Assembly: GCA_029258885.1 (NCBI GenBank)
Contig: JAPDJW010000002.1
Span: 160,001 to 224,000, forward strand
Reading direction: 5' to 3'
Origin: Thermoproteota archaeon
Lineage (GTDB): Archaea; Thermoproteota; Thermoprotei; Thermofilales; B9-G17
Length of the DNA stretch: 64,000 nucleotides
The translations under genes and the position numbers were made by a program. This document shows, piece by piece, positions 29,202 to 62,217 of the stretch; positions within the stretch are counted from its first letter, which is position 1; each line of letters starts with the position of its first letter. Below the pieces are notes generated by a model, which was not told the DNA's origin, did no database searches, and saw only the letters and a list, made by a program, of their open reading frames with translations.

Positions 29202-30257
29202 TTATTCGTTATTTTCAGGTCTAATAATTATATCCCATATCAAGGGATCCTCTTGCCCCACTCTCCATACAGCTATTTTATCTAATCCGAAGGCTTTAAT
29301 TAACCTAGCCCTAACCTCAAAGCTCTTAGCCACCTGAAACCACACTTCATGCTCTAAACCTCCGCTACTATACCTAAAGTATGCTTCCCCACTAGCATTA
29401 TCGAAGCGTACTTTAGCGCCGTAGGCGCCCGCTAGGCTTATCGCATCATAGTATGTGACCGCGCTACCCCTCCCGCCCTTAGGCCAGTCGTAGCCGTAGA
29501 GAGGCACGCCAATTATAAGCTTTTCTCTAGGAACGTATTTCAGCATATTTCTAATAACGTCTTCAAGCCAATATAGGGGGGCTATTGGTCCTGGGCCGCT
29601 GCCGGAGTAGTGGTAGCTGTAGGCCATTACTATAAGATAGTCGTTATATTCTGCTAAAGCCTTATGGTCATATACGTAGGATAGTCCGACAGCTTGTGTA
29701 ACTATTTTGCCATGGCTATGCAATTTCTCATATAGAAGCCTCATAAACTCCGTTAAATACCCCCTATCACTGTATGGTATGTTCTCAAAATCTATATTAA
29801 TACCGTCGTACCCCCGCTTCAAAACCTCCTTAACTATGCTATCTACAGCCTTCTTCCTAACTTCAGGGTTAGTAAGTATCCGGTGTATAGTATCCCTATC
29901 AAATTCCCAATTAGCCACTAGAGGGATTAGCTTCACTCCCCAGCTCCTACACTTCTCTATAAAATCCCGGCTAACGCCTCTATCGATCAAATAACCGCCG
30001 CCAGTTATATAGTACCATGTTGGAGATACCCAGGTAAACTTATCGTGGTGTGCATAGAATGCTTCGATGCTCGAGCTTGACAGCGTAACCCAGCCGAACA
30101 GCTTTACCTCCACTTTAGTTAAATTTTTATTCAATGCCTCTATCTCGCTTAGATAGGCCTTACCGTACCTTTCTCTTCTCCACCGCATAACAGAGTATGC
30201 CATTAATAATGCTACAGATATTGAAATGGCTACAAATACAATCGTTTTCTTTTCCAT
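29202..30257 (-). CDS. GH18 glycoside hydrolase, spore cortex-fragment-lytic (SleL/YaaH/YdhD-like) type, N-terminal membrane anchor
   Basis: TWVSPTWY, GYDGINIDFE, VMAYSYH, GPIAP, IIGVPLYGYDW, HEVWF and IAVWRVGQED. Confidence 0.85.
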   Translation of the reverse strand: MEKKTIVFVAISISVALLMAYSVMRWRRERYGKAYLSEIEALNKNLTKVEVKLFGWVTLSSSSIEAFYAHHDKFTWVSPTWYYITGGGYLIDRGVSRDFIEKCRSWGVKLIPLVANWEFDRDTIHRILTNPEVRKKAVDSIVKEVLKRGYDGINIDFENIPYSDRGYLTEFMRLLYEKLHSHGKIVTQAVGLSYVYDHKALAEYNDYLIVMAYSYHYSGSGPGPIAPLYWLEDVIRNMLKYVPREKLIIGVPLYGYDWPKGGRGSAVTYYDAISLAGAYGAKVRFDNASGEAYFRYSSGGLEHEVWFQVAKSFEVRARLIKAFGLDKIAVWRVGQEDPLIWDIIIRPENNE

Positions 30258-30372
30258 AAGCTAACACCCGAAATTAGCACCTTCCACCTCCTATGGATTC
30301 GGCTGCTACTCTAGGTCTCTATATTTAGCATTGGTGCAAAAATTAATTTTTCTTTCATACATTTTAGTGAAC

Positions 30373-31773
30373 ATGACATCCCTAAGGCTTATAATATTAA
30401 TGGCGCTAATTATCCAGCTTCTAGCGGGTATAGCTTCCCCCTCTCTATCTTCCCCTCAAATCAATAGGCCGAGGATTATATCTAGAGAGGAATGGGGGGC
30501 TAGGCCTCCTAAATGCAACTATAGGGCTAACCCATACTATAATGCAATAACGATACATCACACAGCAACATCCAACGACTATACCGATGGAGCTGCTGTA
30601 GTGAGGAGTATTCAAAAATACCATATGGACGTTAGAGGATGGTGCGATATAGGATATCACTTTCTAATAGATAAATACGGGAATATCTATGAGGGTAGAC
30701 CCATCTGGGCGGTTGGAGCTCATGTTAAGGGACATAATACGGGCAATATTGGAGTAGCTGTTATAGGCAATTTTGAGGAAGCGGTTCCGAATAGTGAGAT
30801 ATTAGACGCTCTAGCAGAGCTGGTAACCTGGCTAGTATATGAATACGGCATACCTATAGAGAATATTAAGGGACATAGGGATTATGCAGCTACAAGCTGT
30901 CCTGGACGTTATCTATATGAAAAATTGTCTTGGCTTAGAAATGAGGTTAAACGTAGGCTTGAAAGTGCTTCCGAGGAATACTATGATGTTAGGGTTAAAA
31001 TATTAAATGATTTAGGCGAGCCTCTTCACGGAGCTATAGTTGAGCTGGACGGATTAACCGATGAAACTGATATTTGGGGAGAGGTATACTTTAGGGATAT
31101 TAAGGGAGGTAGCTACACGATCAACGTGTATTGGGATGATATAAAAGTTTACGGTAAGTCTTGCAAGATATCGAGCAATTGTATGCTTACATTTAAGGTG
31201 CCAGTTATACATTTAAATTTCACAGCCATTACTGAATCTGGCGTTCTTTTAAATAACTATATTTTGGAAATTAGTGGCATAAAAAACTTGACGATTAACG
31301 TAACCAAAGGATATTATGTTCTAAAAAATGTTCCAGCTGGAAAATTCCATGTGAAGATATACTTCCTAAATAGGCTAGTCTATAATAAAAGCATGAGTAT
31401 GTATACGTCTTCCAAAGTAGCGCTGAGGTGTAGGGTTCATATGCTTAAGGTATACTTGAAGGGAGAGGACGGCAAGAACATTAATCAGGCTAAAGTTATA
31501 GTTCTAGAGGAGAATAAAGAGCTATCTACCTATAATGTGTCTGGAGGCTATGCTCTAATCCTTTTACCCGAGGGTAGTTATACGTTAAGAATAGAGAGTG
31601 ATGAGTATACGCCGCTAACAGCTAAAGTTAACGTATCAAGCGATACAGTAGTTCAGCTAGCATTAGAGCCAGGCGAACCTGATGATCCATTCTCCTCGCT
31701 AACCACATTGCTGACCCTAATTATTTTAGCTATACTTCTAGGATTAGCTGGAAAAAAGGTTTTCTCCCACTAA
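30373..31773 (+). CDS. N-acetylmuramoyl-L-alanine amidase (Amidase_2/PGRP-like), secreted, with Ig-like stalk and C-terminal TM anchor
   Basis: IISREEWGA, ITIHHTA, GWCDIGYHFLID..G.IYEGR, GAHVKGHN and KGHRDYAATSCPG (Zn ligands H, H, C intact). ATG 30373 (track TTG 30331). Confidence 0.92.
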   Translation: MTSLRLIILMALIIQLLAGIASPSLSSPQINRPRIISREEWGARPPKCNYRANPYYNAITIHHTATSNDYTDGAAVVRSIQKYHMDVRGWCDIGYHFLIDKYGNIYEGRPIWAVGAHVKGHNTGNIGVAVIGNFEEAVPNSEILDALAELVTWLVYEYGIPIENIKGHRDYAATSCPGRYLYEKLSWLRNEVKRRLESASEEYYDVRVKILNDLGEPLHGAIVELDGLTDETDIWGEVYFRDIKGGSYTINVYWDDIKVYGKSCKISSNCMLTFKVPVIHLNFTAITESGVLLNNYILEISGIKNLTINVTKGYYVLKNVPAGKFHVKIYFLNRLVYNKSMSMYTSSKVALRCRVHMLKVYLKGEDGKNINQAKVIVLEENKELSTYNVSGGYALILLPEGSYTLRIESDEYTPLTAKVNVSSDTVVQLALEPGEPDDPFSSLTTLLTLIILAILLGLAGKKVFSH

Positions 31774-32582
31774 TTTACATAACCTAATCTTATTCACTAT
31801 TCCCTGTATATTATTGGTTCCCCGAACTTCCATCACTAATGGCTTGTTATAGTTAACTTTTTCGAAGCTCTCTATAACCTCTCTCCATTCGATTCTACCC
31901 ATTAAAGGTGGATTGTGTAAATCTCTTATACCATAATTATCATGTATATGAGTTGCTATAAGATATTTCTTTGTAGTCTCTATAAATGTTGAAATATCAA
32001 GGTGGTTAACTGATAGATGTCCTGTGTCGATGCATACCCCTATATTATCATACTTAACGTTTTCAATTAAACTCAGTAGATCGCCAGCTTTGCATCCGAA
32101 AACTCTTTCAAGAGTATTTTCAACTGCTATAAGAATTCCTCTCTCATGAGCATACCTCAGAATTCTATTAAATATCCTTACGTTAACTTCCAGGGAATAC
32201 TTATATGTATCTAGGCTTCTAAACCCTATATTTGGATCGGCTATCGCTGGATGAACTACCAACACTTCCGCTTCAAGCATCCTACAGTAGTCTATCCATC
32301 TAAAAATCTTCTCTAAAGCTCTCTCTACCGTGTTTTTATCAGTCGAGGCGAGCTCTGCATTTACTGAACCAAATATGGCATGCATTTGAATAGGTTTAAG
32401 AGAGGTTGTATTTAGTCTATCCCTAATTTTTCTGCTAATCTATCTTGGCCTTCTCTATCTAGGCCTCTAAAATGTTCATAGGCTATTTCAATAAACTTTA
32501 TTCCCTCCTCGTCCAGTAAATCGAATGTTTCTTCAGCGTTTAAAACAGGATATCCTATCATAGTATCTACTCCCCAATCCAT
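31744..32582 (-). pseudogene. Sugar phosphate isomerase/epimerase (xylose isomerase-like TIM barrel), frameshifted near 32440
   Basis: ATG 32582, 2 nt after the anmK stop, gives 56 aa (MDWGVDTMIG...FIEIAYEH...) ending at TAA 32412. The shifted frame continues ISRKIRDRL...IQMHAIFG into the 213-aa ORF with LVVHP, AVENT, CIDTGH, HIHDN and VMEV. Confidence 0.75.
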
Positions 32583-32584
32583 AT

Positions 32585-33781
32585 CTATTCACCTAGTACT
32601 ATCTTTCCCATAACAACTCTCCTTTTAGCACCAGTAGCAGTTGTGACATTATTATAGTTGCCGGATATGGTTTCGTTGGCCAGAATAGCTATGATCAGAG
32701 GCTCCTTGGCCTGAGCTGGAATACCGTAATCCTCATGAACCCTAACCTCAGCTGGATAGAGATACTCCCTAAGCATCTTAAGCAATGTTTTATTATAGGA
32801 TCCTCCCCCACCAACGATGACTTCATCCACCTTTCCAAGGTAGTTTTCATAGTTGTATTTTATGGATAACGCAGTGAATGCAGTTACTGTAGCTACTATA
32901 TCTTCATCGCTAAGCCCCATTCTCTTACCCTCGCGATACACCTTTAACGCGTAATGTACTCCAAATTCCTCTCTGCCAGTGGTTTTTGGAGGCGGTCTCT
33001 TAATAAACTCATGCTCCATAAGCCTGCTTAAAAGCCTTTCGTTCACACGCCCCTTCGCAGCAATTTTCCCATCTGCATCAAAACTCATTTTACCGCCTGT
33101 AATGTGGCTTACAATAGCATCTATAATCATGTTTCCGGGTCCTGTATCAAAAGCCATAACATCGTCTATTGATGCTTGAGCAGGAATATATGTTACGTTA
33201 GCTATGCCCCCTATGTTCTGAATAGCCCTATTAACGTATTCACTTCTAAAAATTATGTAATCCACATATGCCGATATCGGAGCTCCCTGGCCACCCACCG
33301 CTACATCTTTATGTCTAAAATCAGCGACCGTAACAACGCCAGTTCTCGCGGCAATAACTGATGGCTCAACTATTTGAAGAGTAGATCTAACTCTATAGCT
33401 ATCTACAGTCACGGGATCTGGCATATGATATATTGTTTGACCATGTGATCCTATTAAATCGATGTCTCTCATACTTAGCCCCGCCTCCTCAACTATCCTA
33501 AAGCATGCATCCGCAAAAAGTTCAGCTAGGACGTAGTTCATTAAACATATTTTGTCAACTTTACCCGTATTTGGATCAAATAACTCGAAGACTCTACGCC
33601 TTATGCTCTCTGGGTAGGGATAGGTGTTGTAGGCCAGTATTTTAAACTTGGTGTTTATACCCGATCCACGTATCTTAACTACGACAGCCGACACTCCGTC
33701 GGCCGAGGTTCCAGACATGAGACCTATAACTAGCTTCTCCTCCTTCCTATGTATTTCAATTAGTTTCTCGAAGGGATTCAT
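32585..33781 (-). CDS. anmK: Anhydro-N-acetylmuramic acid kinase
   Basis: IGLMSGTSADG, GSHGQTIYH, DFRHKDVAVGGQGAP, NIGGIAN, FDTGPGN, PPKTTGREEF and GGGSYN. ATG 33781 after GGTGA. Confidence 0.95.
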   Translation of the reverse strand: MNPFEKLIEIHRKEEKLVIGLMSGTSADGVSAVVVKIRGSGINTKFKILAYNTYPYPESIRRRVFELFDPNTGKVDKICLMNYVLAELFADACFRIVEEAGLSMRDIDLIGSHGQTIYHMPDPVTVDSYRVRSTLQIVEPSVIAARTGVVTVADFRHKDVAVGGQGAPISAYVDYIIFRSEYVNRAIQNIGGIANVTYIPAQASIDDVMAFDTGPGNMIIDAIVSHITGGKMSFDADGKIAAKGRVNERLLSRLMEHEFIKRPPPKTTGREEFGVHYALKVYREGKRMGLSDEDIVATVTAFTALSIKYNYENYLGKVDEVIVGGGGSYNKTLLKMLREYLYPAEVRVHEDYGIPAQAKEPLIIAILANETISGNYNNVTTATGAKRRVVMGKIVLGE

Positions 33782-33828
33782 AACGGTCACCGTAAACTGT
33801 TATATACCGTATTAGGAAAATAAAATCT

Positions 33829-34923
33829 TTGGGTAATAACTTGAAGGGAGTTGAAAGGTTTCTTAAAGCATTAAATAGGGAAGAGCCCGATAGAGTCCCG
33901 ATATGGGAGCTTATTATTGATAGACCCGTGATTAAGTCCCTCTATGGGGATATAAGCTACGCTGATGTTGTTGAGATACTGGATTTAGATGGCATAACTG
34001 CTGGAGAGGACGTTAAAATGAGGGAGATTGAAAAGGGGAAATTCGTATGCGAATGGGGGATAACATGGGGCATAACCGAGTTTGGCGTAGTATATCCCCT
34101 TAAGGGTCCCATAAAAAGCAAGAAGGACTTAATCGACTATCAGCCTCCAGATCCCGATGCCGACTACAGGCTAAATACGCTTGAGGAGTATATCGATAGA
34201 TTTAAAGGCGAAAAAGCTATAGTTCTTTTAAGCCACGACGCCTTTGAATTCTCCCATTACTTGGTTGGCGGCATGGCGAATCTATTTAGGCTTTACTATA
34301 AGGATCCCGAGGCCGCACATACTCTAGCGGAGAAGATAGTCGAGTATAAATCAAGAGTCATAGAGAGAGCTATTAAGGCTGGGGCTGACGTTATATTAAG
34401 CGGAGACGACTACGCCGATAAAAACGGTCCGCTAGTATCACCCCGAATGTTCAAAATCTTCATTATGCCCTATCTTAAGAGGGTAGTTGATACGGCAAAA
34501 AGGTACGGGAAGCCGTTTATAAAACATACGGATGGAAAGATATGGAAAATCCTTGATATGATAGTTGCTACCGGTATAGATGGCCTACATCCAATAGAGC
34601 CCTGCGCAGGAATGGATATACTTAAGGTTAAGAGGATGTATGGAGATAGGATCTGCGTAATAGGCAATATAGATTGCTCCTATGTTCTTCCGTTAATGTC
34701 CCCAAATGACGTCGAGGAGGTTGTTAAGGAGACTATAGCTAAAGTGGGTCCCGGAGGAGGATATATATTATCCTCCAGCAACAGCATTCATCCAGGAGTT
34801 AAGCCAGAAAATTTTCTTGTAATGATTAAAGCTGCAAAAAGATATGGTCGTTATCCAATCAGTGAGGAGCTTATCAGGGAATATGGTAAGAGAAACTTTT
34901 ACAGTAAGATTTTCAAGTTTTAG
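33829..34923 (+). CDS. Uroporphyrinogen decarboxylase-like / methylcobamide methyltransferase-superfamily protein
   Basis: ERFLKAL..EEPDRVP, GDDYA...GPLVSP.MF, HTDG, IGNID and GGGYILSSSNSI. Confidence 0.82.
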   Translation: MGNNLKGVERFLKALNREEPDRVPIWELIIDRPVIKSLYGDISYADVVEILDLDGITAGEDVKMREIEKGKFVCEWGITWGITEFGVVYPLKGPIKSKKDLIDYQPPDPDADYRLNTLEEYIDRFKGEKAIVLLSHDAFEFSHYLVGGMANLFRLYYKDPEAAHTLAEKIVEYKSRVIERAIKAGADVILSGDDYADKNGPLVSPRMFKIFIMPYLKRVVDTAKRYGKPFIKHTDGKIWKILDMIVATGIDGLHPIEPCAGMDILKVKRMYGDRICVIGNIDCSYVLPLMSPNDVEEVVKETIAKVGPGGGYILSSSNSIHPGVKPENFLVMIKAAKRYGRYPISEELIREYGKRNFYSKIFKF

Positions 34924-36854
34924 AACGGCAATATCCACGTAGCTTTTGAAACCATGACAATAGCTGTTGCAAGCCCTATTAAAATACCTTCACCCGCTGC
35001 AACGCCCGCTACTATGAGTGCCTTATTTTCGTTCCACCACTCCTTTCCAACCACCTTGGGTGCTAGGTATTTGCTAATAAATGCGCCTATAAACGTAGGT
35101 ACTGCTGAAGTCGGTAGAATATAGGTACCCGTTAATAGACCTATAAGCGAGAACGGTATCCCCATTTTAGATAAAGCTTCGCCTATTATCCCTACCGAGA
35201 GCATAAGTGCGAAGGGATAGATCAGGGTTTCCGACCTGAACTTAAATATCTGCCCAGAAATCCATAGGCATGAGGACGCTGCTTGAACAGGCCATGAAAT
35301 CAATGTCTGAGGATAGACTGAGGAGGGTATTGGGGCTATGCTCCAATAGAACTGCACGTAAACGAAGCTCATTACGAAAAATACTATAGCTGTAAATATG
35401 AAGGCCTTGAAAAAGTCTGAGAGCCTGGTTTTAGTAAGATAAGCGGCCTTCATGCTTTGAGTCCAGTATGGAACAGCTGCTGCACTGACAATAGGTGCTG
35501 TCAACCACGGCTCTATTCCCTTATATCCACTTACGAGTATGGTCGCCTGCCAAACATAGGGTATCGATATAGAGTACCCTGTCTCACCTATAGTCCTTGT
35601 CCTTATGAGGGAGTCCATAAAGCTCCATCCAAGAGCTACAAGGAGGGAGAGCCATATCGGGAAGTCTAATCCCACTAAAGCATGGAACACTATAACGGAA
35701 AGTATAACTGTACCAGCATACCATAGGAGCAATATTTTAGGTGATGGGTATCCAGTGGCCTTCTCAGCCTTAGATAGCTTCGCTAAGCTCTTTATAGCCC
35801 TAATTATACTCTTATAACTTCTAGCTAAAACAATTATTGATACCGCTAACGTGAAGCCTATATGGGGAGCTATCCACACCCTTATGCTTGCCCTTTGGTA
35901 AACATAAGCTAACCCTGAGGCTGGAATCCACTCCTCAACCCATTCAGGGAACCAGTGGGCGAAAACTGTCAGCGCCAAATGATTACCTATAACCCACGTA
36001 GCTATGGATCCTATTAGCATGTAGAGGGCTGTGTCGAACGATATTAGAGTTCCCCCGAGAAATGCGAGTATATCCGTTGCTATACCAAATACCGCACCAG
36101 GCAATATATTCTCTATACCCATGTACCCAGATGTCAGATCAATCCATGGTATGGGTATCAACTCGACCCTTATACCCGTCATACCATAGGAAAGAGTAGG
36201 AACGCCATAAAGTAGTGTTGAGTATATTAGGCCGACCATAGCGCTTAGGATGAATACCCTAAGCTTTTTAGGGTCTCTTTCCGCTAGAGTGGAGCTCATT
36301 TCTGCCTGAACGCTAGCGAAGGGGAACGGCAGTTTCTCTATTTCAATGTATAGGTAACTAAAGAGAAAGGTTAATGAGATATCGTAGAATACATACATGA
36401 AGTATCCACCTACAAGTAGCAGTATGGGTATAAGCCACTCAGGTGCAAAGAATGTTCTAAGCTCATGTACTGGAGAATCGTACCTTGGAACCCACCATGT
36501 AGGTATTACTTCTGGTAGAGGTTTGCCAGTATAGGGGTCCTTAAAGGACCACGTTATAGGGGATCTGACAAAGTAAGATCTATAAACTAGTCCCTCAAAA
36601 GGGGCTGCGGTAGCGGCTATTCCAACCATGGAGTAAATTATAAACATTTCCTGCGTAGTGAGGGGGTTGCCTGTGAGAACGGCTATTTCGCTTAATAGTA
36701 TAGCTGTAACGTAGACTGCCGCGCTAGCGAGACCTCCGCCGCTTACTAAGCTTAGATATATTGATACTGGAAGGATCATTGCTGACGCGAAGAGTATAGC
36801 TAGGGCTGTTCTAGGGGTAAATCCAGGTTTAAATTCGAGCAATTCTTCAGACAT
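34920..36854 (-). CDS. OPT-superfamily-like membrane protein, class A, module copy 2
   Basis: PGFTPR, PLTTQEMFIIYS, IEIEKLPFP, LPGAVFGIATD and WSIAPIPSSVYP. ATG 36854 after GGTG (track 36866). Confidence 0.75.
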   Translation of the reverse strand: MSEELLEFKPGFTPRTALAILFASAMILPVSIYLSLVSGGGLASAAVYVTAILLSEIAVLTGNPLTTQEMFIIYSMVGIAATAAPFEGLVYRSYFVRSPITWSFKDPYTGKPLPEVIPTWWVPRYDSPVHELRTFFAPEWLIPILLLVGGYFMYVFYDISLTFLFSYLYIEIEKLPFPFASVQAEMSSTLAERDPKKLRVFILSAMVGLIYSTLLYGVPTLSYGMTGIRVELIPIPWIDLTSGYMGIENILPGAVFGIATDILAFLGGTLISFDTALYMLIGSIATWVIGNHLALTVFAHWFPEWVEEWIPASGLAYVYQRASIRVWIAPHIGFTLAVSIIVLARSYKSIIRAIKSLAKLSKAEKATGYPSPKILLLWYAGTVILSVIVFHALVGLDFPIWLSLLVALGWSFMDSLIRTRTIGETGYSISIPYVWQATILVSGYKGIEPWLTAPIVSAAAVPYWTQSMKAAYLTKTRLSDFFKAFIFTAIVFFVMSFVYVQFYWSIAPIPSSVYPQTLISWPVQAASSCLWISGQIFKFRSETLIYPFALMLSVGIIGEALSKMGIPFSLIGLLTGTYILPTSAVPTFIGAFISKYLAPKVVGKEWWNENKALIVAGVAAGEGILIGLATAIVMVSKATWILPF

Positions 36855-37042
36855 GTAGAACACCATTGCTGGTGGTCAATAACTTAGAGGATAATTAGCT
36901 TATTAATGTTATCATCACCATGGTACAGACAGCGCTAGTTATTCAATACATGCTATTCCAGCTAGTCCATAGGCCTACGGCAAATGATAAACAATATAAA
37001 ACGTAACTGGTATATCATGGTAGTATTTGAGGTGGTATGTGC

Positions 37043-43676: not shown

Positions 43677-43688
43677 ACAATATTTTTT

Positions 43689-44870
43689 CTATTTTCTTCT
43701 AATAATCCACCTACATAGAATAGCTATGGCAACTACTAGTAAGCCAGCCAGTATTATATATCTATTATTTACGGAATTTTCTTCAATATTTTCGCCTTGA
43801 ATAATAGATTTAATTGCCTCCGCCTTACCTGGATCCTTTATTAGCAAATCAACATTAAAGAAAACCACTCCATCTACGTTGCTTGAAAGAGCATATTTCA
43901 ACTCGTCGGCTATAGTTTTAGTATCGTATCCTAGGTATATACCTACTAAAAGAGGCACTTTACCGGAAACCGTATTTATCTCATCATCTACGTATACCTT
44001 AAATTTATCTACATCGCCTGTGTAAGCCATCGTGACAACATAGTCAAGCCACCCTTCTTCAACCCACCTCTTCCAGTCCTGAAGCTGGTATCTATAGCTG
44101 CTGCCGTATCCAGCTAAATTGTAGACGGGAAACACGGCGGCGGAAACCTTAACCTCAGGCTTTATTGATTTAACTTTCTCGTAGGTCAACCTAACTATCT
44201 CTGAGACACTATTTCTTCTAAAACTATCCCATAAATCTCGACTATAGCTAGGGTCTATATTATATATTTGAATAAATTTGTTTCTGCTTACTATACCGTA
44301 GGCATCTCTGTTGGGATACCTTATTCGGTCAAGCTGAATTCCCTCAATAGGATAATTTTTCACTATCTCCTCGACTACTGATAAAATCCTTGCTCTGGCC
44401 TCTTCAGCCTCGGGATCCATCCACCCTATAACATTACCATATCTATCACGTAATGCTATATCTCTGTGTTTGCTAAGCCAAGGGCTAGGCGTAGTCTCTC
44501 CTTCAGCTAAGGCATTAACATACACGTTAACGCTGATGTTATACTCTAAAGCTTTATTAACTATATACTCGAGTGGATCCCAACTATATTTAGGGCTGAG
44601 AGGGGCTATTAAGCTGTTATAGTAGGTGAAGCCCCAGGGGTCTTTAGCTAGGAAGAATATCGTATTTATGCCTATATCACTTAACATTTTAAAGACTTCA
44701 TCTACCTGCTTACACCAAACATCTTTTTCACTACTCCAATAATCCGAGTAAATGCCCCACCATATCCCTATAACCTTACTCTTGTTCTGATGATCCATAC
44801 AATCAGTATGCTTATGATAAATAGTTAAAGCTAAAACCACGGCTATAATAACCAGTAATGCTAGACGCAT
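43689..44870 (-). CDS. Glycosyl hydrolase-like 10 (GHL10/DUF187, YddW/DigH-like), membrane anchored
   Basis: GINTIFF, YYNS, WMDP, YPIEGIQLDRIRYP and QDWKRWVEEGWLDYVVTMAY. N- and C-terminal TM segments. ATG 44870 after GGTGA. Confidence 0.85.
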   Translation of the reverse strand: MRLALLVIIAVVLALTIYHKHTDCMDHQNKSKVIGIWWGIYSDYWSSEKDVWCKQVDEVFKMLSDIGINTIFFLAKDPWGFTYYNSLIAPLSPKYSWDPLEYIVNKALEYNISVNVYVNALAEGETTPSPWLSKHRDIALRDRYGNVIGWMDPEAEEARARILSVVEEIVKNYPIEGIQLDRIRYPNRDAYGIVSRNKFIQIYNIDPSYSRDLWDSFRRNSVSEIVRLTYEKVKSIKPEVKVSAAVFPVYNLAGYGSSYRYQLQDWKRWVEEGWLDYVVTMAYTGDVDKFKVYVDDEINTVSGKVPLLVGIYLGYDTKTIADELKYALSSNVDGVVFFNVDLLIKDPGKAEAIKSIIQGENIEENSVNNRYIILAGLLVVAIAILCRWIIRRK

Positions 44871-44929
44871 GGCGTTCACCATTAAGAGGGAAAACTCAAT
44901 TCATTAAAAAGATGCGAAATAATAAAAAA

Positions 44930-46963: not shown

Positions 46964-47022
46964 CACCTAATTTACTTCATATATCTAATAGATAAAAATA
47001 TAAGAAAATATATTAAGGTTGT

Positions 47023-48828: not shown

Positions 48829-49058
48829 AAATTCTCCCCCCACCTGGATTTATCTTTTAGCTTTAGAACTTATAAGTTTTAACATTAAATTTATATATTA
48901 GATGGCTAACTTTTTATCAAATTTTCTATCGAAGGAAATTATCAAAATATTATACTACATATTTCCCAAAACAATTTATGGTAAAAATATAAGTCTTAGG
49001 CGGGATAAGCGTTATTTAGGTAAAGATTTAATCTAGTATAAGCCGTGGAGGGACGGTT

Positions 49059-55422: not shown

Positions 55423-55485
55423 ATATTCCTTAAATTCTATTTTTGATGAAAATGCTTATATTAGTCAATAAATTTACCTTCTGGC

Positions 55486-56346
55486 ATGAGCCTGAGGAGC
55501 ACCTTAGTAATACTACTAGCGTTAGTTCTCATATTACCCGTAGTTAAAGCTTTACCGCCGGGTTCAGTTGTTCTAGATGTTCCGTATGTACATCAAGTAT
55601 ATGATGTTCCCGAGTGGTTTGATGGCCGCTATTCATGTGGGCCAACTTCGATAGTTATGGTGCTTGCATACTGGAAAGTTATAGAGCCATGGCCGTTCGA
55701 GGCCAGCATGCCATATAAACACACTTCGGAGTACGGAAGGTACGTATGTTGTATCTTTAAGGTTGGAGACTTCGTCTTCGATAAGGGGGAAGTAGATGCT
55801 TCCAGGAGGACTAAGGGGTACGGGGTGCATGGTTTCACATATATACCTGGAGCTGGCATGTCGTGGCAGAAGGCAGTAGATCTATTTAAGATATTCGGCT
55901 TCCAATCATACATAGACTACTCTCCAACATTCGAGGAACTTAAGAGGGAGATTGATAATGGCTATCCAGTATTAATGAGTACCCAGCTAACCAAAGCAGG
56001 ACATATAGTAGTTGCAATAGGATATACTCCGGATGGATGCATAATAGTCAATGATCCAGCTGGCGATAAAAATAGAGGGTCATACTTTAATTACTATGGG
56101 AAACAGGTAGTGTACGACTGGCCAGGCGTTAATAAGGGCCACGTGAACTTAAATAAAGTTAAAGCCTTTATAATAGTACATCCAACGGAAAACCTTAAGA
56201 AAGCAATACCCGTAAGCGAGAGGCCTGAAGAGGAGGATGGAATAAACGTTAAAACGTGGGTATCGCTGGCTATAATCATCGCAGCCGTGTGCCTCATAAT
56301 ATACCTGGGAGTAAGGGAGAAGCTTAAGGCTACACGACCAATCTAA
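55486..56346 (+). CDS. C39-like (papain-fold) cysteine peptidase, secreted with C-terminal TM anchor
   Basis: LDVPYVHQ, SCGPTSIVMVL (Cys), GHIVVAIGY (His) and VNDP (Asp). Confidence 0.85.
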   Translation: MSLRSTLVILLALVLILPVVKALPPGSVVLDVPYVHQVYDVPEWFDGRYSCGPTSIVMVLAYWKVIEPWPFEASMPYKHTSEYGRYVCCIFKVGDFVFDKGEVDASRRTKGYGVHGFTYIPGAGMSWQKAVDLFKIFGFQSYIDYSPTFEELKREIDNGYPVLMSTQLTKAGHIVVAIGYTPDGCIIVNDPAGDKNRGSYFNYYGKQVVYDWPGVNKGHVNLNKVKAFIIVHPTENLKKAIPVSERPEEEDGINVKTWVSLAIIIAAVCLIIYLGVREKLKATRPI

Positions 56347-57562
56347 GTATATCCTCGTATCTCTCCCTCTTCCTTATGATTTTAACCTTGTCCTTAGATA
56401 CTAGTATCTCCATAGGTCTAGGCCTAGAGTTGTAGTTGCTTGCCATGGAATAGCCGTATGCTCCAACGTCTAGTATGGCTAGTATATCGCCCCGCCTGGT
56501 CTCAGGAAACTCGCCATCCAGCAGGAATACATCGGATGATTCACATATTGGACCGCCTATGCTGTATACCGCTTCTTCCCCATGTTCATTGCTTAAATTT
56601 ATTATCCTATGTTTTGCCCCATAGAGTGCAGGTCTAATTAAATCGTTCATTCCTGCATCGACGAGTATCCACCGTCGCCCTCCAGATTCTTTAACATAGT
56701 TAACTTTAGTAAGGAGTATTCCTGATTCTGCAACCAAGTACCTTCCCGGTTCAATGACTACCGTAGGTTCATTTAGCCCGTATTCGTTGCATTTCTCAAA
56801 GTATTTTCTCGATACTTCCTTGAGGCATTTATCTAAGTCTATTCCTTTATCGTAAGCATAAGATACTCCAAATCCTCCTCCTATGTCTACGTATTTAAGC
56901 TCTATTCCGAGCTTATCCAGAATCATACCAGCTATGTCCATAAGCTTACTCATATTCTGAACAAATGGATTAATCTCCCCTATCATCGAACCTATATGTG
57001 AATGTATTCCCAAGGCATTCAGCTTTCTCCATTTAAGAATTCTAGAGTACGCCTTAAACCAGTCTTTTAAATCAACTCCAAATTTACTCCCCCTAGTCCC
57101 TGTCCTAACGTATCTATGCGCTTTAATATGTATATCAAGATTAAATCTGACTCCTACTCTAGACTCCTTATCCAGCTTTTCCGTAATCCTACCTATAACA
57201 TCTATCTCCTCCAGGGACTCTACATTTATAATTAATACGTCGCTAAGAACAGCGTTCTCTATCTCATAATCGCATTTACTAACTCCATCAAAAATTATCT
57301 CCCTACCGCTATATCCGGCTCTAAACGCTGAGAGTATTTCTCCCCAGGACACAGCCTCTACCCCAAATCCATATCCTCGCATTATTTCGAGAATCCTTGG
57401 ATTGCTGTTCGCTTTACATGCATATGTTATCATAAAATTCCTAAAGTACTTACTCATTAACTCTTTTACATGCTCGCATCTATTTTTAATAATGTCTTCG
57501 AAGTAGACGTATAAAGGCGTACCATATTCTTCAGCTAGGCTAATAAGTAGGCTATGATCCAC
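56330..57562 (-). CDS. lysA: Diaminopimelate decarboxylase
   Basis: YGTPLYVY, YACKAN (PLP Lys), SKFG, HSHIGS, DIGGGFG, EPGRYLV, DAGMNDLIRPALY, GPICESSD and GAYGYSMASNYNSRPRP. Confidence 0.93.
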   Translation of the reverse strand: MDHSLLISLAEEYGTPLYVYFEDIIKNRCEHVKELMSKYFRNFMITYACKANSNPRILEIMRGYGFGVEAVSWGEILSAFRAGYSGREIIFDGVSKCDYEIENAVLSDVLIINVESLEEIDVIGRITEKLDKESRVGVRFNLDIHIKAHRYVRTGTRGSKFGVDLKDWFKAYSRILKWRKLNALGIHSHIGSMIGEINPFVQNMSKLMDIAGMILDKLGIELKYVDIGGGFGVSYAYDKGIDLDKCLKEVSRKYFEKCNEYGLNEPTVVIEPGRYLVAESGILLTKVNYVKESGGRRWILVDAGMNDLIRPALYGAKHRIINLSNEHGEEAVYSIGGPICESSDVFLLDGEFPETRRGDILAILDVGAYGYSMASNYNSRPRPMEILVSKDKVKIIRKRERYEDILRLVV

Positions 57563-59087
57563 CGCATATCACCTCAACCATAGCCTCCACGATAGCGGGG
57601 GAAATACCGTATGTTAATACGATCGTCTTTGCCTCCCTTATCATTAAGTAGTCTGTGGGCTCCTTTAATACTATAAGAGCCGATTTATCAAAGCTAGAAA
57701 TAATTCTCTTTGCAAGCTCCAACTGGCCCTTATATCTATAGGCATCATACGTTGCCACTATCACAGCATCCCCTCCCAGCCTATCAACCTCCATAATACA
57801 ATCCTCTACTTCCTCAATTAATGGATTTATGTCTATGGGAACTGTTAAACACTTTACCCCCTTATCCTCAAACTTCCTAATAACCTCTTCCTCCAGCCTA
57901 TTGAAGGGTAGCGGATACATGCTTCTGTATCGCGGCAGGAGAAGGACGATTTTCATTCCCTGTTTAAGCGGTAGGATTTTAGCGGAATCTCTAACGACCC
58001 TTATAGAGTTTAGGCAAATATTCCTGTTAATCTCCTTATGTCTAGTACATCCAACTACAGATAGTGGATAGCTTCTAGACTTTATTTGTAAAGCAAACTT
58101 TCTAAGATTCATAACCCTACTATATGCCTCTAGAATTCTCTTCCTCGAAATCCTCCCCGCCCTAACGTTATCAACTATACTATCCCTAATACTGTATATG
58201 AAGTTCTCATCGTAGCTCATCAGGAGGATGTCGCACCCAGCATTAAGAGCCATAGCCGCTATCTCGCTAGCCTCATATCTATCGTATACAGCTTTCATTA
58301 GTAGAGAATCTGTTATTACAGCGCCTCTAAATCCAAGCTCCCTCCTTAGTATTCCCTCAATAATTCTCCTTGAAAACGTCGCTGGTATAATTTCCTTGTC
58401 GATCTTTGGAAGGGCTACGTGGGCTGTCATTATAAGCTGTATACCAGCATCAACCGCCGCTTTAAAGGGCTTAAGCTCCCTGGATTTAAGAAGCTCTAAG
58501 TCGTGAGTTAGCACGGGAAGGTCTAGGTGTGAGTCTACGGAAGTATCTCCGTGTCCAGGGAAGTGCTTCCCGGTAGCAACAATCCCCTTCTCGTGGAGGC
58601 CACGTATAAACTCAACGCCCATAGATGAGACTAGTTCAGGCGTCGAGCCGAACGATCTTATCCCAATTATAGGGTTGTAGGGGTTAGTATTTATATCAAG
58701 TACTGGCGCAAAATCCACGTTAAATCCCATCGCATTAAGCTCCGCTCCAGCTATCTCCGCAACGGCCCTAGCATACCTGGGAGCTCCCGTGGAGCCTACA
58801 GCCATGTGGCTGGGAATAAATGTTACGTAGTCGTTAAATCGCATAATCAATCCTCCCTCGTGGTCTATAGCGTAGAGAAATCTTGGAATTTCAAGTTCCC
58901 TAGCATATCGGTTAAACTCCGACGTTAGACGTCTAACCTGCTCGGGGTTTCTTATATTACCTATGGTAAAGACAAGGCCGCATGGCTTAATATCCGATAT
59001 TAAATCCCTTGCTTCGTCAACGGAACTTCCCGGAAATCCTATAAACATCAGCTGACCAGCCAAATACTCAAGATCTACCTTTTCCAT
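57552..59087 (-). CDS. nagZ: GH3 beta-N-acetylhexosaminidase with C-terminal GH3 domain, no signal peptide
   Basis: AIDHEGG, RSFG, KHFPGHGDTSVDSH (NagZ signature), MTAHV and ITDSLLM. Start ATG 59087 or 59096. Confidence 0.93.
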   Translation of the reverse strand: MEKVDLEYLAGQLMFIGFPGSSVDEARDLISDIKPCGLVFTIGNIRNPEQVRRLTSEFNRYARELEIPRFLYAIDHEGGLIMRFNDYVTFIPSHMAVGSTGAPRYARAVAEIAGAELNAMGFNVDFAPVLDINTNPYNPIIGIRSFGSTPELVSSMGVEFIRGLHEKGIVATGKHFPGHGDTSVDSHLDLPVLTHDLELLKSRELKPFKAAVDAGIQLIMTAHVALPKIDKEIIPATFSRRIIEGILRRELGFRGAVITDSLLMKAVYDRYEASEIAAMALNAGCDILLMSYDENFIYSIRDSIVDNVRAGRISRKRILEAYSRVMNLRKFALQIKSRSYPLSVVGCTRHKEINRNICLNSIRVVRDSAKILPLKQGMKIVLLLPRYRSMYPLPFNRLEEEVIRKFEDKGVKCLTVPIDINPLIEEVEDCIMEVDRLGGDAVIVATYDAYRYKGQLELAKRIISSFDKSALIVLKEPTDYLMIREAKTIVLTYGISPAIVEAMVEVICGGS

Positions 59088-59103
59088 GGTAAACATCTAT
59101 CCC

Positions 59104-59125
59104 CCAAAAGTATATAACGATTGAT
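59104..59125. promoter_or_regulatory. Shared bidirectional TATA element between divergent nagZ-lysA and murK-murQ-namZ units
   Basis: TATATAA at 59111-59117 (TTATATAC on the minus strand) lies ~30 nt from both GTG 59142 and ATG 59087. Purine-rich BRE-like CCAAAAG lies upstream on the plus strand. Confidence 0.5.
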
Positions 59126-59141
59126 TCGGTATAATGGCTAC

Positions 59142-60092
59142 GTGATAATACTAGCTATCGATGGGGGAGGCAGTAAAACAGAGGCAATAGCATTAAATGA
59201 TAAGGCAGACGTTTTAGGACGAGGCCTCGCAGGTCCCAGCAATCCAAATGTAGTTGGCCTCAAGTCATGTATAGAGGCAATACTTTTAGCCGCTCGAAGA
59301 GCCCTTAAAGAGGGAGGATTAGAGAAAGCGGACATACTTGTAGCCGGAATAGCTGGTGCTGGCAGATTTAAGACAAAATCGCTTATTAAGGATTCCCTAT
59401 CTAAAACCGGAATTGCGAAAAAATACCTCATATTTTCAGACGCCGAAATATACCTGGTTGCGTCCACTCGAGGTAGCTCCGGAATAATGGTAAACTCCGG
59501 AACTGGAATGATAGTCTTGGGAATGGATGATCGCGGGAGAATAGCTAGGAGCGGTGGATGGGGCTATCTCATAGACGATGAAGGAAGCGGGTTCTGGATA
59601 GGACGTGAGGCGCTAAACGCCGTGTTTAGATCATTGGATGGAAGGGGGCCGCCAACCCTACTTAGCGAGGAAGTATTAAGATTCTTCAACTCCGAGGATT
59701 TCGACGACCTTATAATCAAGATATATAGCAGTCTAACGCCTACAGATATCTCTAAGCTAACCCACGTAGTAGATAAGCTATATGAAACTGACGGGGTTTC
59801 CCGGGATATCGTTAGAAGGGCAGCACAAGAGCTCGCTAAGGCGGTAGAGGCAGTTAGAGCTAAACTTAATCTCAGATATCCAGTGAAGGTATACTGCGTT
59901 GGAGGGGCATTTGAGATGAAGTCGCTTTTAAGCGAATTCGAGAGAGCTCTAGGAGATAAGTATCTTATTTCAAAAGTTAAGCTAAGCCCTGTCGTTGGCG
60001 CTGCCATTTTAGGCTTAAAGGAGCTGCATGGAGGGAAAATAGATAAAAGATTATTGGACAAAATCTATTTAGAGTGTTTGAGGGTGGGATAG
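59142..60092 (+). CDS. BadF/BadG/BcrA/BcrD-family amino-sugar kinase (MurK/GlcNAc-MurNAc kinase-like)
   Basis: IDGGGSKT, GIAG, SDA, NSGTG and GGWGYLIDDEGSGFWIG. Directly upstream of murQ. GTG 59142 (track TTG 59121). Confidence 0.87.
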   Translation: MIILAIDGGGSKTEAIALNDKADVLGRGLAGPSNPNVVGLKSCIEAILLAARRALKEGGLEKADILVAGIAGAGRFKTKSLIKDSLSKTGIAKKYLIFSDAEIYLVASTRGSSGIMVNSGTGMIVLGMDDRGRIARSGGWGYLIDDEGSGFWIGREALNAVFRSLDGRGPPTLLSEEVLRFFNSEDFDDLIIKIYSSLTPTDISKLTHVVDKLYETDGVSRDIVRRAAQELAKAVEAVRAKLNLRYPVKVYCVGGAFEMKSLLSEFERALGDKYLISKVKLSPVVGAAILGLKELHGGKIDKRLLDKIYLECLRVG

Positions 60093-60095
60093 ATT

Positions 60096-61076
60096 ATGGC
60101 TACTAGTGAGTTGGGTAGGAAGGATAGGGAGCTATTTAAGCTCCTAGAGAGGCTAACTACCGAGCAGATAAATCCGAGATCTACTAGATTAAGCGAGTTG
60201 TCAACAGTAGAGATACTAAAAATAATAAACGACGAGGATAAAAAGGTTGCATTTGCTGTGGAAAAAGAGATTCCAAATATAGCTAAAGCTGTAGATACGA
60301 TAGTAGACGCCATTAAGAGAGGAGGTAAATGGATATATGTTGGAGCTGGAACCAGTGGTAGATTAGGGATAATTGACGTAGCCGAACTTCTTCCAACATA
60401 CGATATAGGTCCTGAGGTAGCTGAAGCTATAATTGCAGGAGGACCTGGGGCTGTCTTTAGACCTATAGAGGGGGCTGAAGACGATGAGGAAATGGCTGTT
60501 AGGGAGCTTAAAGCTAAAAGACTATGCAGTAAGGATGTGGTTGTAGGCATATCGGCCAGCGGTAGGACGCCCTATGTAATTGCTGCACTGAGATACGCTA
60601 GAGAGATAGGAGCAAAGGCTATAGCTATAACCTGCGTTAGGGATTCACCTATAGTTAAACACGCAGATATAGTTATATGCCCCAATACGGGCCCTGAGGT
60701 CATAACAGGCTCCACGAGAATGAAAGCGGCTACAGCGCAGAAAATGATTTTAACGATGATGAGCACGGCCATTATGGTTAGACTCGGAAGAGTTAAGGGC
60801 AATTTAATGGTTACACTCGAGCCTGTCAGTAGGAAGCTAATTGAGAGAGCTAAGAGGATAATAATGATCGAGACTGGCGTTGACTATGATACAGCAACTA
60901 AACTGCTTGAGGAATCTAAGGGTAACGTGACAGCGGCGATAGTAATGGGGAAGGCGAACGTAAGCTACGAGAAGGCAATAGCATTATTAAATGCAACGAA
61001 CAATGTTCCCACTAAGGCTATAGAATTAGCCGAAAAACTTAGGAGAGAGGGTGTACTTGATAAGTGGAGCGGTTAA
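60096..61076 (+). CDS. murQ: N-acetylmuramic acid 6-phosphate etherase
   Basis: TEQINPRS, YVGAGTSGRLG..D..E, EGAED, GISASGRTPYV and GPEVITGSTRMKAATAQKMIL. Confidence 0.96.
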   Translation: MATSELGRKDRELFKLLERLTTEQINPRSTRLSELSTVEILKIINDEDKKVAFAVEKEIPNIAKAVDTIVDAIKRGGKWIYVGAGTSGRLGIIDVAELLPTYDIGPEVAEAIIAGGPGAVFRPIEGAEDDEEMAVRELKAKRLCSKDVVVGISASGRTPYVIAALRYAREIGAKAIAITCVRDSPIVKHADIVICPNTGPEVITGSTRMKAATAQKMILTMMSTAIMVRLGRVKGNLMVTLEPVSRKLIERAKRIIMIETGVDYDTATKLLEESKGNVTAAIVMGKANVSYEKAIALLNATNNVPTKAIELAEKLRREGVLDKWSG

Positions 61077-62217
61077 AACAGGGTTAGATGTACTTGTCGA
61101 AGAGAAGCTTAGAAGCATAGAGGGAGACAAGGTAGGTTTAGTAATAAACCATACGGCTTTAACTAGAGACCTGGAGTTCATAGTTGATGTATTTCGAAGA
61201 TGTGGAAAGGAGATACCGGTAGTTTTTTCACCAGAGCACGGCTTAATGGGTGACGTTGCTGACGCCGTAAAGGTTGAGTCATATAGGGATCCCGATTTAG
61301 ACGTATATGTATATAGCTTATACGGGAAAACATATGAGCCACCCCTAGATCTCGTCAGGGATTTCGATGCACTAGTATATGATATCCAGGATTTAGGAGT
61401 TAGATGGTATACCTTTATTTCAACCCTCTACTACTCCCTAAGGGCAGCGGCAAAAGCCAATACACCGATTTATGTTCTGGATAGACCTAACCCTGTAACC
61501 GGAGTAGCTATAGAGGGTCCGGTTTTAGATCCCAGATTTAAGTCCTTTGTAGGAATATATAGGCTTCCGACGAGATACGCCTTAACATGCGGCGAGCTAG
61601 CCCTCCTCTACAATAAGGAGGAGGGATTTAATGCTGATTTAAAGGTAATAGAAATGAGAAACTGGAGAAGGAGCATGTGGTACGATGAAACAGGATTAAT
61701 ATGGGTTCCTCCCTCCCCCAACATACCGTCGCTTGAAACCGCAACAATATACCTTGGTACATGTCTAATAGAGGGCACGAACATTTCTGAAGGCAGGGGA
61801 ACTCCTAATCCATTCGTCTACATAGGAGCGCCCTGGATTAAGCCTAGGGATCTAGCAAGACGCATGAACTCGCTTAACCTTAAGGGGGTAAAGTTTAGAC
61901 CAATCTACTTCAGACCTTCTGTGTCCAAGTATGCTGGTGAAAGGTGCGGAGGAGTACAGGTCCATTTAATTGATAGAGAGAAATTTCAGCCTCTAAGGAC
62001 GGGCTTGTATCTAATAAAGACTATTATGGAAATGTATCCGGATAAGTTTGAGTGGAGGGTGTTTAAAGGGGAATACTTCTTCGATAAACTCATAGGTAGA
62101 GGCTACGTCAGAAAGTATCTCGAGGAGGGATATGATATAGAATACATTGAAGAGACCTGGCTTAAAGACCTACAGGAGTATAGGGATAGAATTAAGGATA
62201 TTATGCTGTATGGATAA
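61051..62217 (+). CDS. namZ: Exo-beta-N-acetylmuramidase (DUF1343/YbbC family), no signal peptide
   Basis: VGLVINHT, FSPEHG, YDIQDLGVRWYTFISTL, LDRPNP, WVPPSPNIP and EGTNISEGRGT..PF. Confidence 0.93.
   Translation: MYLISGAVKTGLDVLVEEKLRSIEGDKVGLVINHTALTRDLEFIVDVFRRCGKEIPVVFSPEHGLMGDVADAVKVESYRDPDLDVYVYSLYGKTYEPPLDLVRDFDALVYDIQDLGVRWYTFISTLYYSLRAAAKANTPIYVLDRPNPVTGVAIEGPVLDPRFKSFVGIYRLPTRYALTCGELALLYNKEEGFNADLKVIEMRNWRRSMWYDETGLIWVPPSPNIPSLETATIYLGTCLIEGTNISEGRGTPNPFVYIGAPWIKPRDLARRMNSLNLKGVKFRPIYFRPSVSKYAGERCGGVQVHLIDREKFQPLRTGLYLIKTIMEMYPDKFEWRVFKGEYFFDKLIGRGYVRKYLEEGYDIEYIEETWLKDLQEYRDRIKDIMLYG

Follow-up and report, generated by a model that had tools for sequence, protein, structure and literature searches.

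A Thermofilales gene cluster with predicted roles in the harvest and catabolism of bacterial peptidoglycan

Gene content and organization of the locus

The 64,000-nt stretch of DNA analyzed here (hereafter the window; G000:C1:160001-224000) is part of a 646,815-bp contig, the largest in the 2.10-Mb genome of a Thermofilales archaeon, and contains a cluster of genes whose families suggest that the organism feeds on bacterial cell walls. An earlier note on this DNA, made from the sequence alone, had named ten such genes at 29202-62217 (GH18, Amidase_2, AnmK, GHL10, C39-like, LysA, NagZ, MurK-like, MurQ and NamZ), and we found all ten there as intact open reading frames (ORFs). The end it gave to the cluster, at 62217, was not borne out: because a gene for an AmiE/PBP4B-like protein lies at 63932, the cluster continues past the end of the window and encloses the gene for a seryl-tRNA synthetase (SerRS). 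Family assignments are based on Pfam and NCBIfam profile searches, with catalytic motifs checked by alignment to solved structures; MurQ, LysA, NagZ and AnmK reach their curated NCBIfam cut-offs, and catalytic motifs are retained across the tested enzymes of the locus. MurQ, NamZ, AnmK and LysA each occur as a single copy in the 2.1-Mb genome, so their grouping within 35 kb is far beyond chance (~5e-6 by our own estimate, (35/2100)^3). Short gene overlaps point to operons for nagZ-lysA, for kin-murQ-namZ (with the MurK-like kinase), for giant B-OPT-C39 (a giant membrane protein, an OPT permease and the C39-like peptidase) and for propeller-DUF6785-GHL10 (a beta-propeller surface protein, a DUF6785 membrane protein and GHL10).

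Surface enzymes

In a hydrophobicity scan, the Amidase_2, GHL10, C39-like and beta-propeller/immunoglobulin (Ig) proteins each show a signal peptide and an anchor at the C-terminus, and GH18 has an N-terminal anchor; no export signal was seen in NagZ, NamZ, MurQ, LysA, the two kinases or the AmiE-like protein. The Amidase_2 protein (30331-31773, plus strand; PF01510 2.7e-21, with CarboxypepD_reg) is an N-acetylmuramoyl-L-alanine amidase of the peptidoglycan recognition protein (PGRP) type, with an Ig-like stalk in addition to its signal peptide and C-terminal membrane anchor. Alignment to PGRPs (PGRP-3) and T7 lysozyme shows that the zinc ligands His, His and Cys and the catalytic Tyr are kept (HHT, GYHF, GHRD and SCPG), and among 41 genomes of the order Amidase_2 was detected only in those bearing MurQ. 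The GHL10 glycosidase (43689-44882, minus strand; PF02638 1.5e-30, 107 bits), of the DigH/Cwp19 family, is proposed to cut peptide-free glycan strands. In the window the Amidase_2 and GHL10 genes stand 12 kb apart, whereas in three other genomes of the order, each from a different family, the two domains are fused in a single ORF of 560-585 aa (L101 3130-4887 in G008, L102 4329-6059 in G033 and L103 3266-4948 in G010), in which the Amidase_2 half is 58-60% and the C-terminal GHL10 half 41-45% identical to the window proteins. These natural fusions tie GHL10 to the substrate of the amidase and agree with the order of action in Escherichia coli, in which DigH cleaves glycan that amidases have already stripped (PMC12288456).

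The GH18 protein (29202-30257, minus strand; PF00704 4.8e-23) is of the spore-cortex YdhD/YaaH/SleL type, its best solved relatives being YdhD (3cz8), YaaH (4s3k) and a cortical-lytic enzyme (4s3j). It retains the catalytic D-x-E as DGINIDFE and is a candidate endo-N-acetylglucosaminidase on peptidoglycan glycan. Pfam detected no LysM repeats in the protein, only the GH18 domain, and a single N-terminal transmembrane (TM) segment takes their place as a membrane anchor. Likewise a candidate, in this case for cross-link or stem-peptide cleavage, is the papain-like cysteine peptidase of the Peptidase_C39_2 family (55486-56346, plus strand; PF13529 1e-17), which carries a signal peptide, a C-terminal anchor and the expected Cys (SCGPTS), His (AGHIVV) and Asp (NDP); comparison with the PDB gave no solved relative, and an ESM Atlas look-up returned only its own family. 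The PQQ-type beta-propeller with Ig-like domains (47023-48843, minus strand; PF13570/PF13360 and Big_7; signal peptide and C-terminal TM segment) is a candidate substrate binder, and has a paralogue at 27607-29193.

Membrane modules

Two paralogous sets of membrane proteins lie among these genes, each comprising an OPT-fold permease, a DUF6785/DUF6784 permease and a giant protein of 1,470-1,490 aa with M28-like, MacB and FtsX parts. Giant A (37037-41506, plus strand; PF04389, PF12704 and PF02687) has a signal peptide, an M28-like ectodomain, a MacB-type periplasmic core and an FtsX domain, and is 33% identical to giant B (49059-53474, plus strand), which shows the same parts in Pfam. Giant B overlaps by 17 nt the gene of an OPT-family oligopeptide-transporter-like permease with ~13 TM segments (53458-55422, plus strand), matched by PF03169 over the whole protein (2.3e-14); the OPT-fold permease at 34920-36866 (minus strand, ~11 TM segments) has no Pfam match of its own and is 44% identical to it at full length. 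The polytopic DUF6785/DUF6784 proteins, at 41643-43676 (plus strand; PF20581 and PF20580) and at 44930-46966 (minus strand, upstream of GHL10 on the same strand; PF20581 1.3e-20, PF20580 1.7e-11), are 27% identical, and the former is of a divergent OPT-like type with weak similarity to the OPT-like set. None of the window's ORFs matched an ABC ATPase family that could serve the FtsX permeases, which separates the giants from type VII ATP-binding cassette (ABC) transporters of the MacB/FtsEX kind.

Based on its family and neighbors, we propose that the OPT permease at 53458 imports stem peptides or muropeptides. In the related genome G005, a giant and OPT-like pair lies 3.7 kb upstream of LysA, and LysA of G010 is followed by an Opp-type ABC importer for peptides (a binding protein with OppB and OppC); importers at this equivalent position support, but do not prove, the import of peptide-bearing fragments. 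The G010 cassette also contains a free-standing PA and M28 peptidase of 547 aa (L105 2386-4026) that shares ~25% identity with the giant A ectodomain, a hint that the M28-like heads of the giants may bind peptides. Genes for AAA_14/DUF4143 ATPases occur near OPT-like/giant sets, both in the window (14780-16057, minus strand) and in G005 (L112 7106-8539).

Upstream, positions 1-14661 of the window encode a GH94 phosphorylase, two surface proteins and a regulator of the Lrp type that has gained a further, carbohydrate-type domain, along with a third OPT-like/giant/DUF6785 set (6225-14661), whose giant at 8235 is 29% identical to giant A. Judged by its genes, this region is a separate glucan-type locus, predicted to act on beta-glucan, built on the same plan.

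Cytoplasmic sugar route

The enzymes predicted to act inside the cell begin with two exo-glycosidases. GH3 NagZ (57552-59096, minus strand; PF00933 4.8e-82; NF003740 209.1 against a cut-off of 207) is a beta-N-acetylglucosaminidase that has no signal peptide, matches 6k5j best in the PDB and keeps both the Asp-His dyad loop KHFPGHGDTSVDSH and the nucleophile motif VITD. NamZ (61051-62217, plus strand), an exo-beta-N-acetylmuramidase of family GH171, combines PF07075 (NamZ_N, 2.3e-75) with PF20732 (NamZ_C, 6.5e-57), aligns with a Bacteroides DUF1343 structure (4k05) at 272 bits and overlaps murQ by 26 nt. The hydrophobicity scan found no N-terminal hydrophobic segment in it, and it is predicted to be cytoplasmic, unlike the secreted NamZ of Bacillus subtilis. 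MurQ, the N-acetylmuramic acid (MurNAc) 6-phosphate etherase (60096-61076, plus strand), scores 336.5 against 302 with TIGR00274 and 382 against 255 with NF009222. In enzymes of this family, which have the SIS fold, conserved glutamates are catalytic; both Glu motifs are kept here (AEL/SEC and EGAEDD), and the match to etherase 4s12 reaches 262 bits.

Two kinases could supply MurQ. The BadF/BadG-type, MurK-like kinase (59121-60092, plus strand; PF01869 4.3e-38) has a MurNAc/N-acetylglucosamine (GlcNAc) kinase, 8zo3, as its best PDB match (149 bits) and precedes MurQ in every archaeal relative locus examined. The second is a cytoplasmic anhydro-sugar kinase of the AnmK family (32585-33790, minus strand; PF03702 1.7e-97, 327 bits) that passes two NCBIfam equivalog cut-offs (NF007148, 486 against 387; NF007142, 443 against 435). 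Its orthologues (54-61% identity) sit within Kin-MurQ-NamZ/NagZ cassettes of Culexarchaeia and Methanomethylicia metagenome-assembled genomes (MAGs); the family of the protein is certain, and its substrate we infer from this gene context. The ORFs of the window gave no match to a phosphotransferase system (PTS) or to the RpiR/MurR family and thus show no counterpart of the MurP and MurR of the B. subtilis-type MurNAc operon.

The AmiE/PBP4B-like protein, a cytoplasmic, beta-lactamase-fold protein of 370 aa (minus strand; PF00144 7.1e-71), has its 3' end at 63932-64000 and continues to G000:C1:225044. PBP4B is its best NCBIfam match (226 bits, below the cut-off), and it is 61% identical to the product of a gene between NagZ and AnmK in the Culexmicrobium cassette and 56% identical to one in the G010 cassette. 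We propose that it acts as a MurNAc-L-Ala amidase on imported muropeptides. The predicted sugar route from polymer to GlcNAc 6-phosphate (GlcNAc-6P) is complete, and its steps are sorted by compartment.

GH18, GH3 NagZ and a GlcNAc-type kinase would all serve in the use of chitin or other GlcNAc polymers, and the GH94 phosphorylase lies 28 kb upstream. However, chitin breakdown has no place for MurQ, NamZ, Amidase_2, the AmiE-like protein or LysA, the GH18 belongs to the spore-cortex type, and relatives fuse Amidase_2 to GHL10, so that we consider chitin or a similar polymer a very improbable target.

Lysine from diaminopimelate

LysA, a cytoplasmic diaminopimelate decarboxylase (56330-57562, minus strand; TIGR01048, 456 bits against 298), retains the pyridoxal phosphate-binding lysine motif YACKAN and the active-site CESSD, and the start of its gene overlaps the end of nagZ. 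We found neither DapA nor DapF in the host genome, which is 99.9% complete, and its sole match to LysX is far below the cut-off for a true LysX; across the order, LysX passes in only 3 of 41 genomes. LysA is therefore an orphan, and because the genome holds no complete diaminopimelate (DAP) pathway, a salvage role is favored. By gene content, the host appears to be a lysine auxotroph. Within the order, 8 of the 41 genomes carry LysA, and each of these also bears MurQ: LysA directly follows NamZ, as the last gene of Kin-MurQ-NamZ-LysA operons, in G010, G033 and G038, and is on the same contig as MurQ in G005.

Authenticity of the locus

Since the core families are all typical of bacteria, a bacterial cluster misjoined onto an archaeal contig, or contamination, could in principle explain the locus, and the earlier note had itself named a chimeric insertion as the result that would overturn its reading. 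The evidence is consistently to the contrary. The host genome carries an archaeal 16S rRNA and is estimated to be 99.89% complete with 0.6% contamination. The cluster starts 189 kb into the 647-kb contig, with archaeal genes on either side and within, among them those for Nre, GH57, an Lrp-type regulator and the SerRS (62332-63942, plus strand; PF18490 and PF00587), an archaeal-type housekeeping gene inside the cluster that serves as a marker of host DNA. G+C content (GC) is flat across the window; that of the cluster (0.420) falls within the 5-95% range of the genome, and the correlation of its tetranucleotide signature with that of the genome (r = 0.953) ranks at the 13.5th percentile among 156 windows of equal size. 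As an assembly check, contigs from four other metagenome studies were placed on the locus. One of 16,107 nt covers 51504-64000, from giant B onward, and extends past the window, and the NamZ-SerRS junction is bridged by contigs of three other studies (this one and those of two further runs). In addition, 15 of the order's 41 genomes carry MurQ, which forms an archaeal clade with at most 56% identity to bacteria. A chimera is so improbable on these grounds that we treat it as excluded. The archaeal context claimed in the note is thus confirmed by 16S rRNA, flanking genes, composition and independent assemblies, and the locus is genuine chromosomal DNA of a Thermofilales archaeon that inhabits hydrothermal vents or sediments: at least half of the sequence words of its 5.9-kb core are present in 12 hydrothermal-vent or sediment metagenome runs from many studies. 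No RNA dataset was matched to this core, and of the murQ words a fraction of 0.19 is present in one metatranscriptome.

Neither Rfam families nor tRNA genes were detected in the window. The SerRS carries a tRNA_bind_4 N-terminal domain, a type known from methanogens, here in a Thermofilales genome. Beyond the window lies the gene for an anaerobic ribonucleotide reductase, NrdD, with an intein (Intein_splicing 1.8e-22; L093 1628-5005, or G000:C1:225528-228905).

Distribution and history of the cassette

The 15 genomes of the order with MurQ above the cut-off belong to six families; NamZ occurs in 14 of the 41, nearly always adjoining MurQ, and AnmK in 5. Duplicates of their loci link the genomes compared here to named MAGs (a Thermofilaceae archaeon, a Thermofilales archaeon and 'Thermoprotei' bins from Guaymas), which places the order as Thermofilales, in the Thermoproteota. 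In an even sample of the phylum, MurQ is present in 37 of 401 genomes and is concentrated in a few families. MAGs of Thermofilales, Culexarchaeia and Methanomethylicia share a gene order, Kin-MurQ-NamZ followed by NagZ and the AmiE-like gene on the opposite strand and then AnmK. In an unrooted MurQ tree of 86 rows, built with the 80 sequences nearest to the query, 19 sequences from these three groups form one clade (Shimodaira-Hasegawa-like approximate likelihood ratio test, SH-aLRT, 99), in which the MurQ of Candidatus Culexmicrobium cathedralense (L013) is nested among those of Thermofilales. This nesting suggests that the cassette has been exchanged between archaeal classes sharing hot habitats. 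We also considered two independent archaeal acquisitions of MurQ, since this quick tree sets a Brockarchaeota pair apart from the main archaeal clade, and rejected the idea: an approximately unbiased (AU) test did not reject one archaeal clade of 21 rows (p = 0.73).

The nearest bacterial MurQs, from Kryptoniota and Ignavibacteriota, are 49-56% identical, and the archaeal clade with identity to bacteria of 56% or less therefore indicates old resident genes that have been passed between thermophilic archaea. A bacterial origin is a sensible reading, given the bacterial nature of the substrate, but as the tree is unrooted and samples only the 80 nearest sequences, we name no donor. The suggestion that these genes were acquired from bacteria thus stands in part: the murQ phylogeny makes such an origin plausible, though old.

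Full-length GlmS shows the opposite distribution to MurQ, being present in 1 of 15 MurQ-bearing and 19 of 26 MurQ-lacking genomes of the order. The MurQ-bearing genomes keep only a SIS-only half of GlmS of ~350 aa, which in the host is encoded at C2:87162-88220 (L095 7163-8221), beside a GlmU-like gene. This anticorrelation may follow phylogeny or may reflect dependence on salvaged amino sugars. The latter would suit a mainly anabolic role for the locus, in which GlcNAc-6P goes into the UDP-GlcNAc and glycoproteins of the archaeon itself and not into carbon and energy metabolism, and the failure to find NagA in the genome and the placing of the SIS-only gene next to GlmU would fit as well. Against this, the genomes are related, the SIS-only enzyme could itself make glucosamine 6-phosphate, and a PIG-L deacetylase linked to the cassette, along with the heavy investment in surface hydrolases and importers, fits bulk catabolism better. 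We judge a chiefly anabolic purpose unlikely.

Steps encoded elsewhere in the genome

The PIG-L deacetylase just mentioned is encoded, with a GNAT partner, on contig C6, where its gene is at G000:C6:47580-48290. Orthologues of the pair adjoin NamZ in L017, a Thermofilaceae MAG, and in G008 stand 4 kb away from LysA, and PIG-L is the best candidate for the deacetylation of GlcNAc-6P. For the peptide branch, candidates are likewise outside the locus: an M14 carboxypeptidase gene adjoins that of a second BadF kinase, an enolase-superfamily gene whose best model is L-Ala-D/L-Glu epimerase overlaps that of an M18 aminopeptidase, and a second Amidase_2 gene adjoins one for an amino-acid permease. 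The earlier description of the pathway as near-complete therefore applies to the sugar branch down to GlcNAc-6P, while the peptide branch is tentative.

A three-stage model for the use of bacterial peptidoglycan

MurB (MurB_C), which is required to make MurNAc, was detected in all ten bacterial controls and in no genome among the 41 of the order, so any MurNAc that these archaea handle must be foreign. With the predicted compartments of the enzymes, the orphan LysA and the Amidase_2-GHL10 fusions, this absence supports, in silico, the view that a murein-less archaeon digests bacterial walls, and we consider it probable that the locus harvests and catabolizes bacterial peptidoglycan in three stages: surface cutting, import and cytoplasmic breakdown. 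Outside the cell, the PGRP-type Amidase_2 would strip stem peptides, and GHL10 and the SleL/YdhD-type GH18 would cut the bared glycan; the C39-like peptidase may cut peptides, with these four hydrolases tethered to the membrane, and the propeller/Ig protein may hold the substrate. Fragments would then enter through the OPT-fold permeases with their giant FtsX/M28-like partners. Inside, NagZ and NamZ would alternately remove GlcNAc and MurNAc, the AmiE/PBP4B-like enzyme would free MurNAc from attached peptide, and MurNAc 6-phosphate (MurNAc-6P) would arise from MurNAc by the MurK-like kinase and from anhydro-MurNAc by AnmK. MurQ would convert MurNAc-6P to GlcNAc-6P and D-lactate, and LysA would decarboxylate stem-peptide meso-DAP to lysine. 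Deacetylation of GlcNAc-6P by the PIG-L enzyme, followed by the GlmD-like deaminase encoded by the SIS-only gene that adjoins the GlmU-like gene, could yield fructose 6-phosphate.

Several results weigh against this model. The giant/OPT modules are present in the glucan locus too and hence are not specific to peptidoglycan, which argues for a general role in oligomer uptake. Among the enzymes, AnmK matches a fungal levoglucosan kinase best in the PDB (266 bits, against 195 for solved AnmK), the MurK-like kinase scores 120 with the NCBIfam NagK model, below its cut-off of 370, and the sole solved relative of GHL10, Cwp19 (5oq2), is matched weakly (39 bits). Comparing k-mers in nine intergenic regions of the locus revealed no common motif of at least 10 nt that could be a shared operator. 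Finally, canonical NagA, LdcA, NlpC/P60 and an FAD-type D-lactate dehydrogenase were not found in the host genome, leaving the fates of GlcNAc-6P, D-lactate and the stem peptides only partly accounted for.

The surface enzymes might instead be chiefly weapons for contact killing of bacteria, with the catabolic genes clearing debris. One study showed that peptidoglycan hydrolases of archaea kill bacteria and left killing versus scavenging open (PMC12352652), the Amidase_2 keeps its full catalytic set, and the tethering of all cutters to the cell suits a contact-dependent attack. However, the hydrolases here sit among importers and a complete sugar route, and across relatives they co-occur with LysA and MurQ-NamZ, which points to nutrition. 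Killing and feeding are moreover compatible, which makes this a variant of the three-stage model, and a locus devoted mainly to killing appears improbable to us.

The three-stage model can be extended to a full murein utilization locus in a lysine auxotroph dependent on bacterial walls, which would draw its lysine from wall meso-DAP, the OPT-fold and ATPase-less FtsX/M28-giant module importing muropeptides or stem peptides here and glycan fragments in sister loci. We put this extended proposal forward tentatively, as possible but somewhat more doubtful than not.

Peptidoglycan makes up one of the largest pools of microbial necromass, and its breakdown is credited to bacteria. By joining cutters to importers and to a MurNAc, GlcNAc and DAP route in an organism unable to make MurNAc, the locus makes an answer to the scavenging question directly testable, and the trait is spread over several Thermoproteota lineages (the 37 of 401 sampled genomes). 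It also offers heat-adapted peptidoglycan hydrolases, and the natural fusion assigns GHL10 to peptidoglycan. If the extended proposal is true, the OPT-fold and FtsX/M28-giant module would gain its first substrate assignment.

Other genes of the locus

Two further genes lie near AnmK. One (31744-32385, minus strand; PF01261 4.2e-30, profile positions 53-234 only) encodes a xylose-isomerase-like TIM-barrel protein that is ~50 N-terminal residues short of the family model, with in-frame stops upstream. Similar genes recur beside AnmK in G010 (L105 5428-7217) and beside LysA in G005 (L112 8540-9346), but the proteins of the three genomes are only 20-25% identical and we rejected them as orthologues; we accordingly propose no role for this protein. 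The other, which adjoins AnmK, encodes a cytoplasmic URO-D/MtaA-like protein (33829-34923, plus strand; PF01208 1.6e-40) for which every NCBIfam match is below its cut-off and an ESM Atlas look-up gave only its own family. In a Thermofilaceae MAG and two Ignavibacteria loci (L022, L031 and L086), URO-D-like genes likewise lie a few kb from MurQ.

Comparison with known systems

The enzymes and the logic of the pathway are known from bacteria. In agreement with the earlier opinion that a clustered archaeal route was uncharacterized, full-text literature searches (MurQ/AnmK, necromass and muramic acid in MAGs, LysA salvage) found no archaeal description, and we found none of a salvage link from DAP to lysine. 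The paper describing Culexarchaeia does not mention peptidoglycan.

The closest parallel is the muropeptide rescue operon of B. subtilis (murQ-murR-murP-amiE-nagZ-namZ), whose NagZ, AmiE and NamZ digest intact peptidoglycan stepwise; the NamZ family was listed there only in bacterial phyla (PMC8054146). Both systems cluster NagZ, NamZ, an AmiE/PBP4B-type enzyme and MurQ, and in both the sugars would be removed alternately from the ends, but the archaeal locus is without the MurP PTS and MurR, and phosphorylation would fall to the MurK-like kinase and AnmK. B. subtilis secretes NagZ, AmiE and NamZ, whereas the archaeal proteins have no signal peptide and so would act after import. The archaeal locus further adds surface Amidase_2, GHL10, GH18 and C39 enzymes, OPT-fold importers and LysA, in a host without murein.

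Kinase-dependent MurNAc routes occur in Clostridium acetobutylicum (MurK) and Tannerella forsythia (MurT-MurK-MurQ). These share with the archaeal locus a BadF-type kinase directly upstream of MurQ and, by analogy, would share PTS-independent uptake and ATP-dependent 6-phosphorylation; a MurT-type transporter was not seen in the archaeal locus. Gram-negative bacteria recycle their own walls with AmpG, NagZ, AmpD, AnmK, MurQ, LdcA, MpaA and Mpl, a system that resembles the proposed one in its cytoplasmic NagZ, amidase step, AnmK and MurQ acting on imported fragments. It differs in that the archaeal purpose would be feeding on foreign walls, the amidase is of the AmiE and not the AmpD type, no LdcA was found, and DAP would be handed to LysA instead of being returned to a Mur ligase.

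At the surface, the archaeal GHL10 shares with DigH (YddW) and Cwp19 (PMC12288456; PDB 5oq2) a TIM barrel that would act after amidases, an order mirrored by the fusions, though its similarity is weak (the 39 bits to Cwp19) and it has a C-terminal TM anchor in an archaeal membrane. A 2025 study reported archaeal peptidoglycan hydrolases that kill bacteria, leaving scavenging open and making no mention of MurNAc catabolism (PMC12352652). Those archaea, like ours, encode secreted or surface hydrolases of bacterial type, but as single hydrolases, where here one locus combines them with predicted import and a full catabolic route. What appears to set the present system apart is this surface-to-cytoplasm organization, together with an operon-linked orphan LysA, the split form of an Amidase_2-GHL10 fusion and a likely substrate context for the OPT-fold/FtsX-giant machines.

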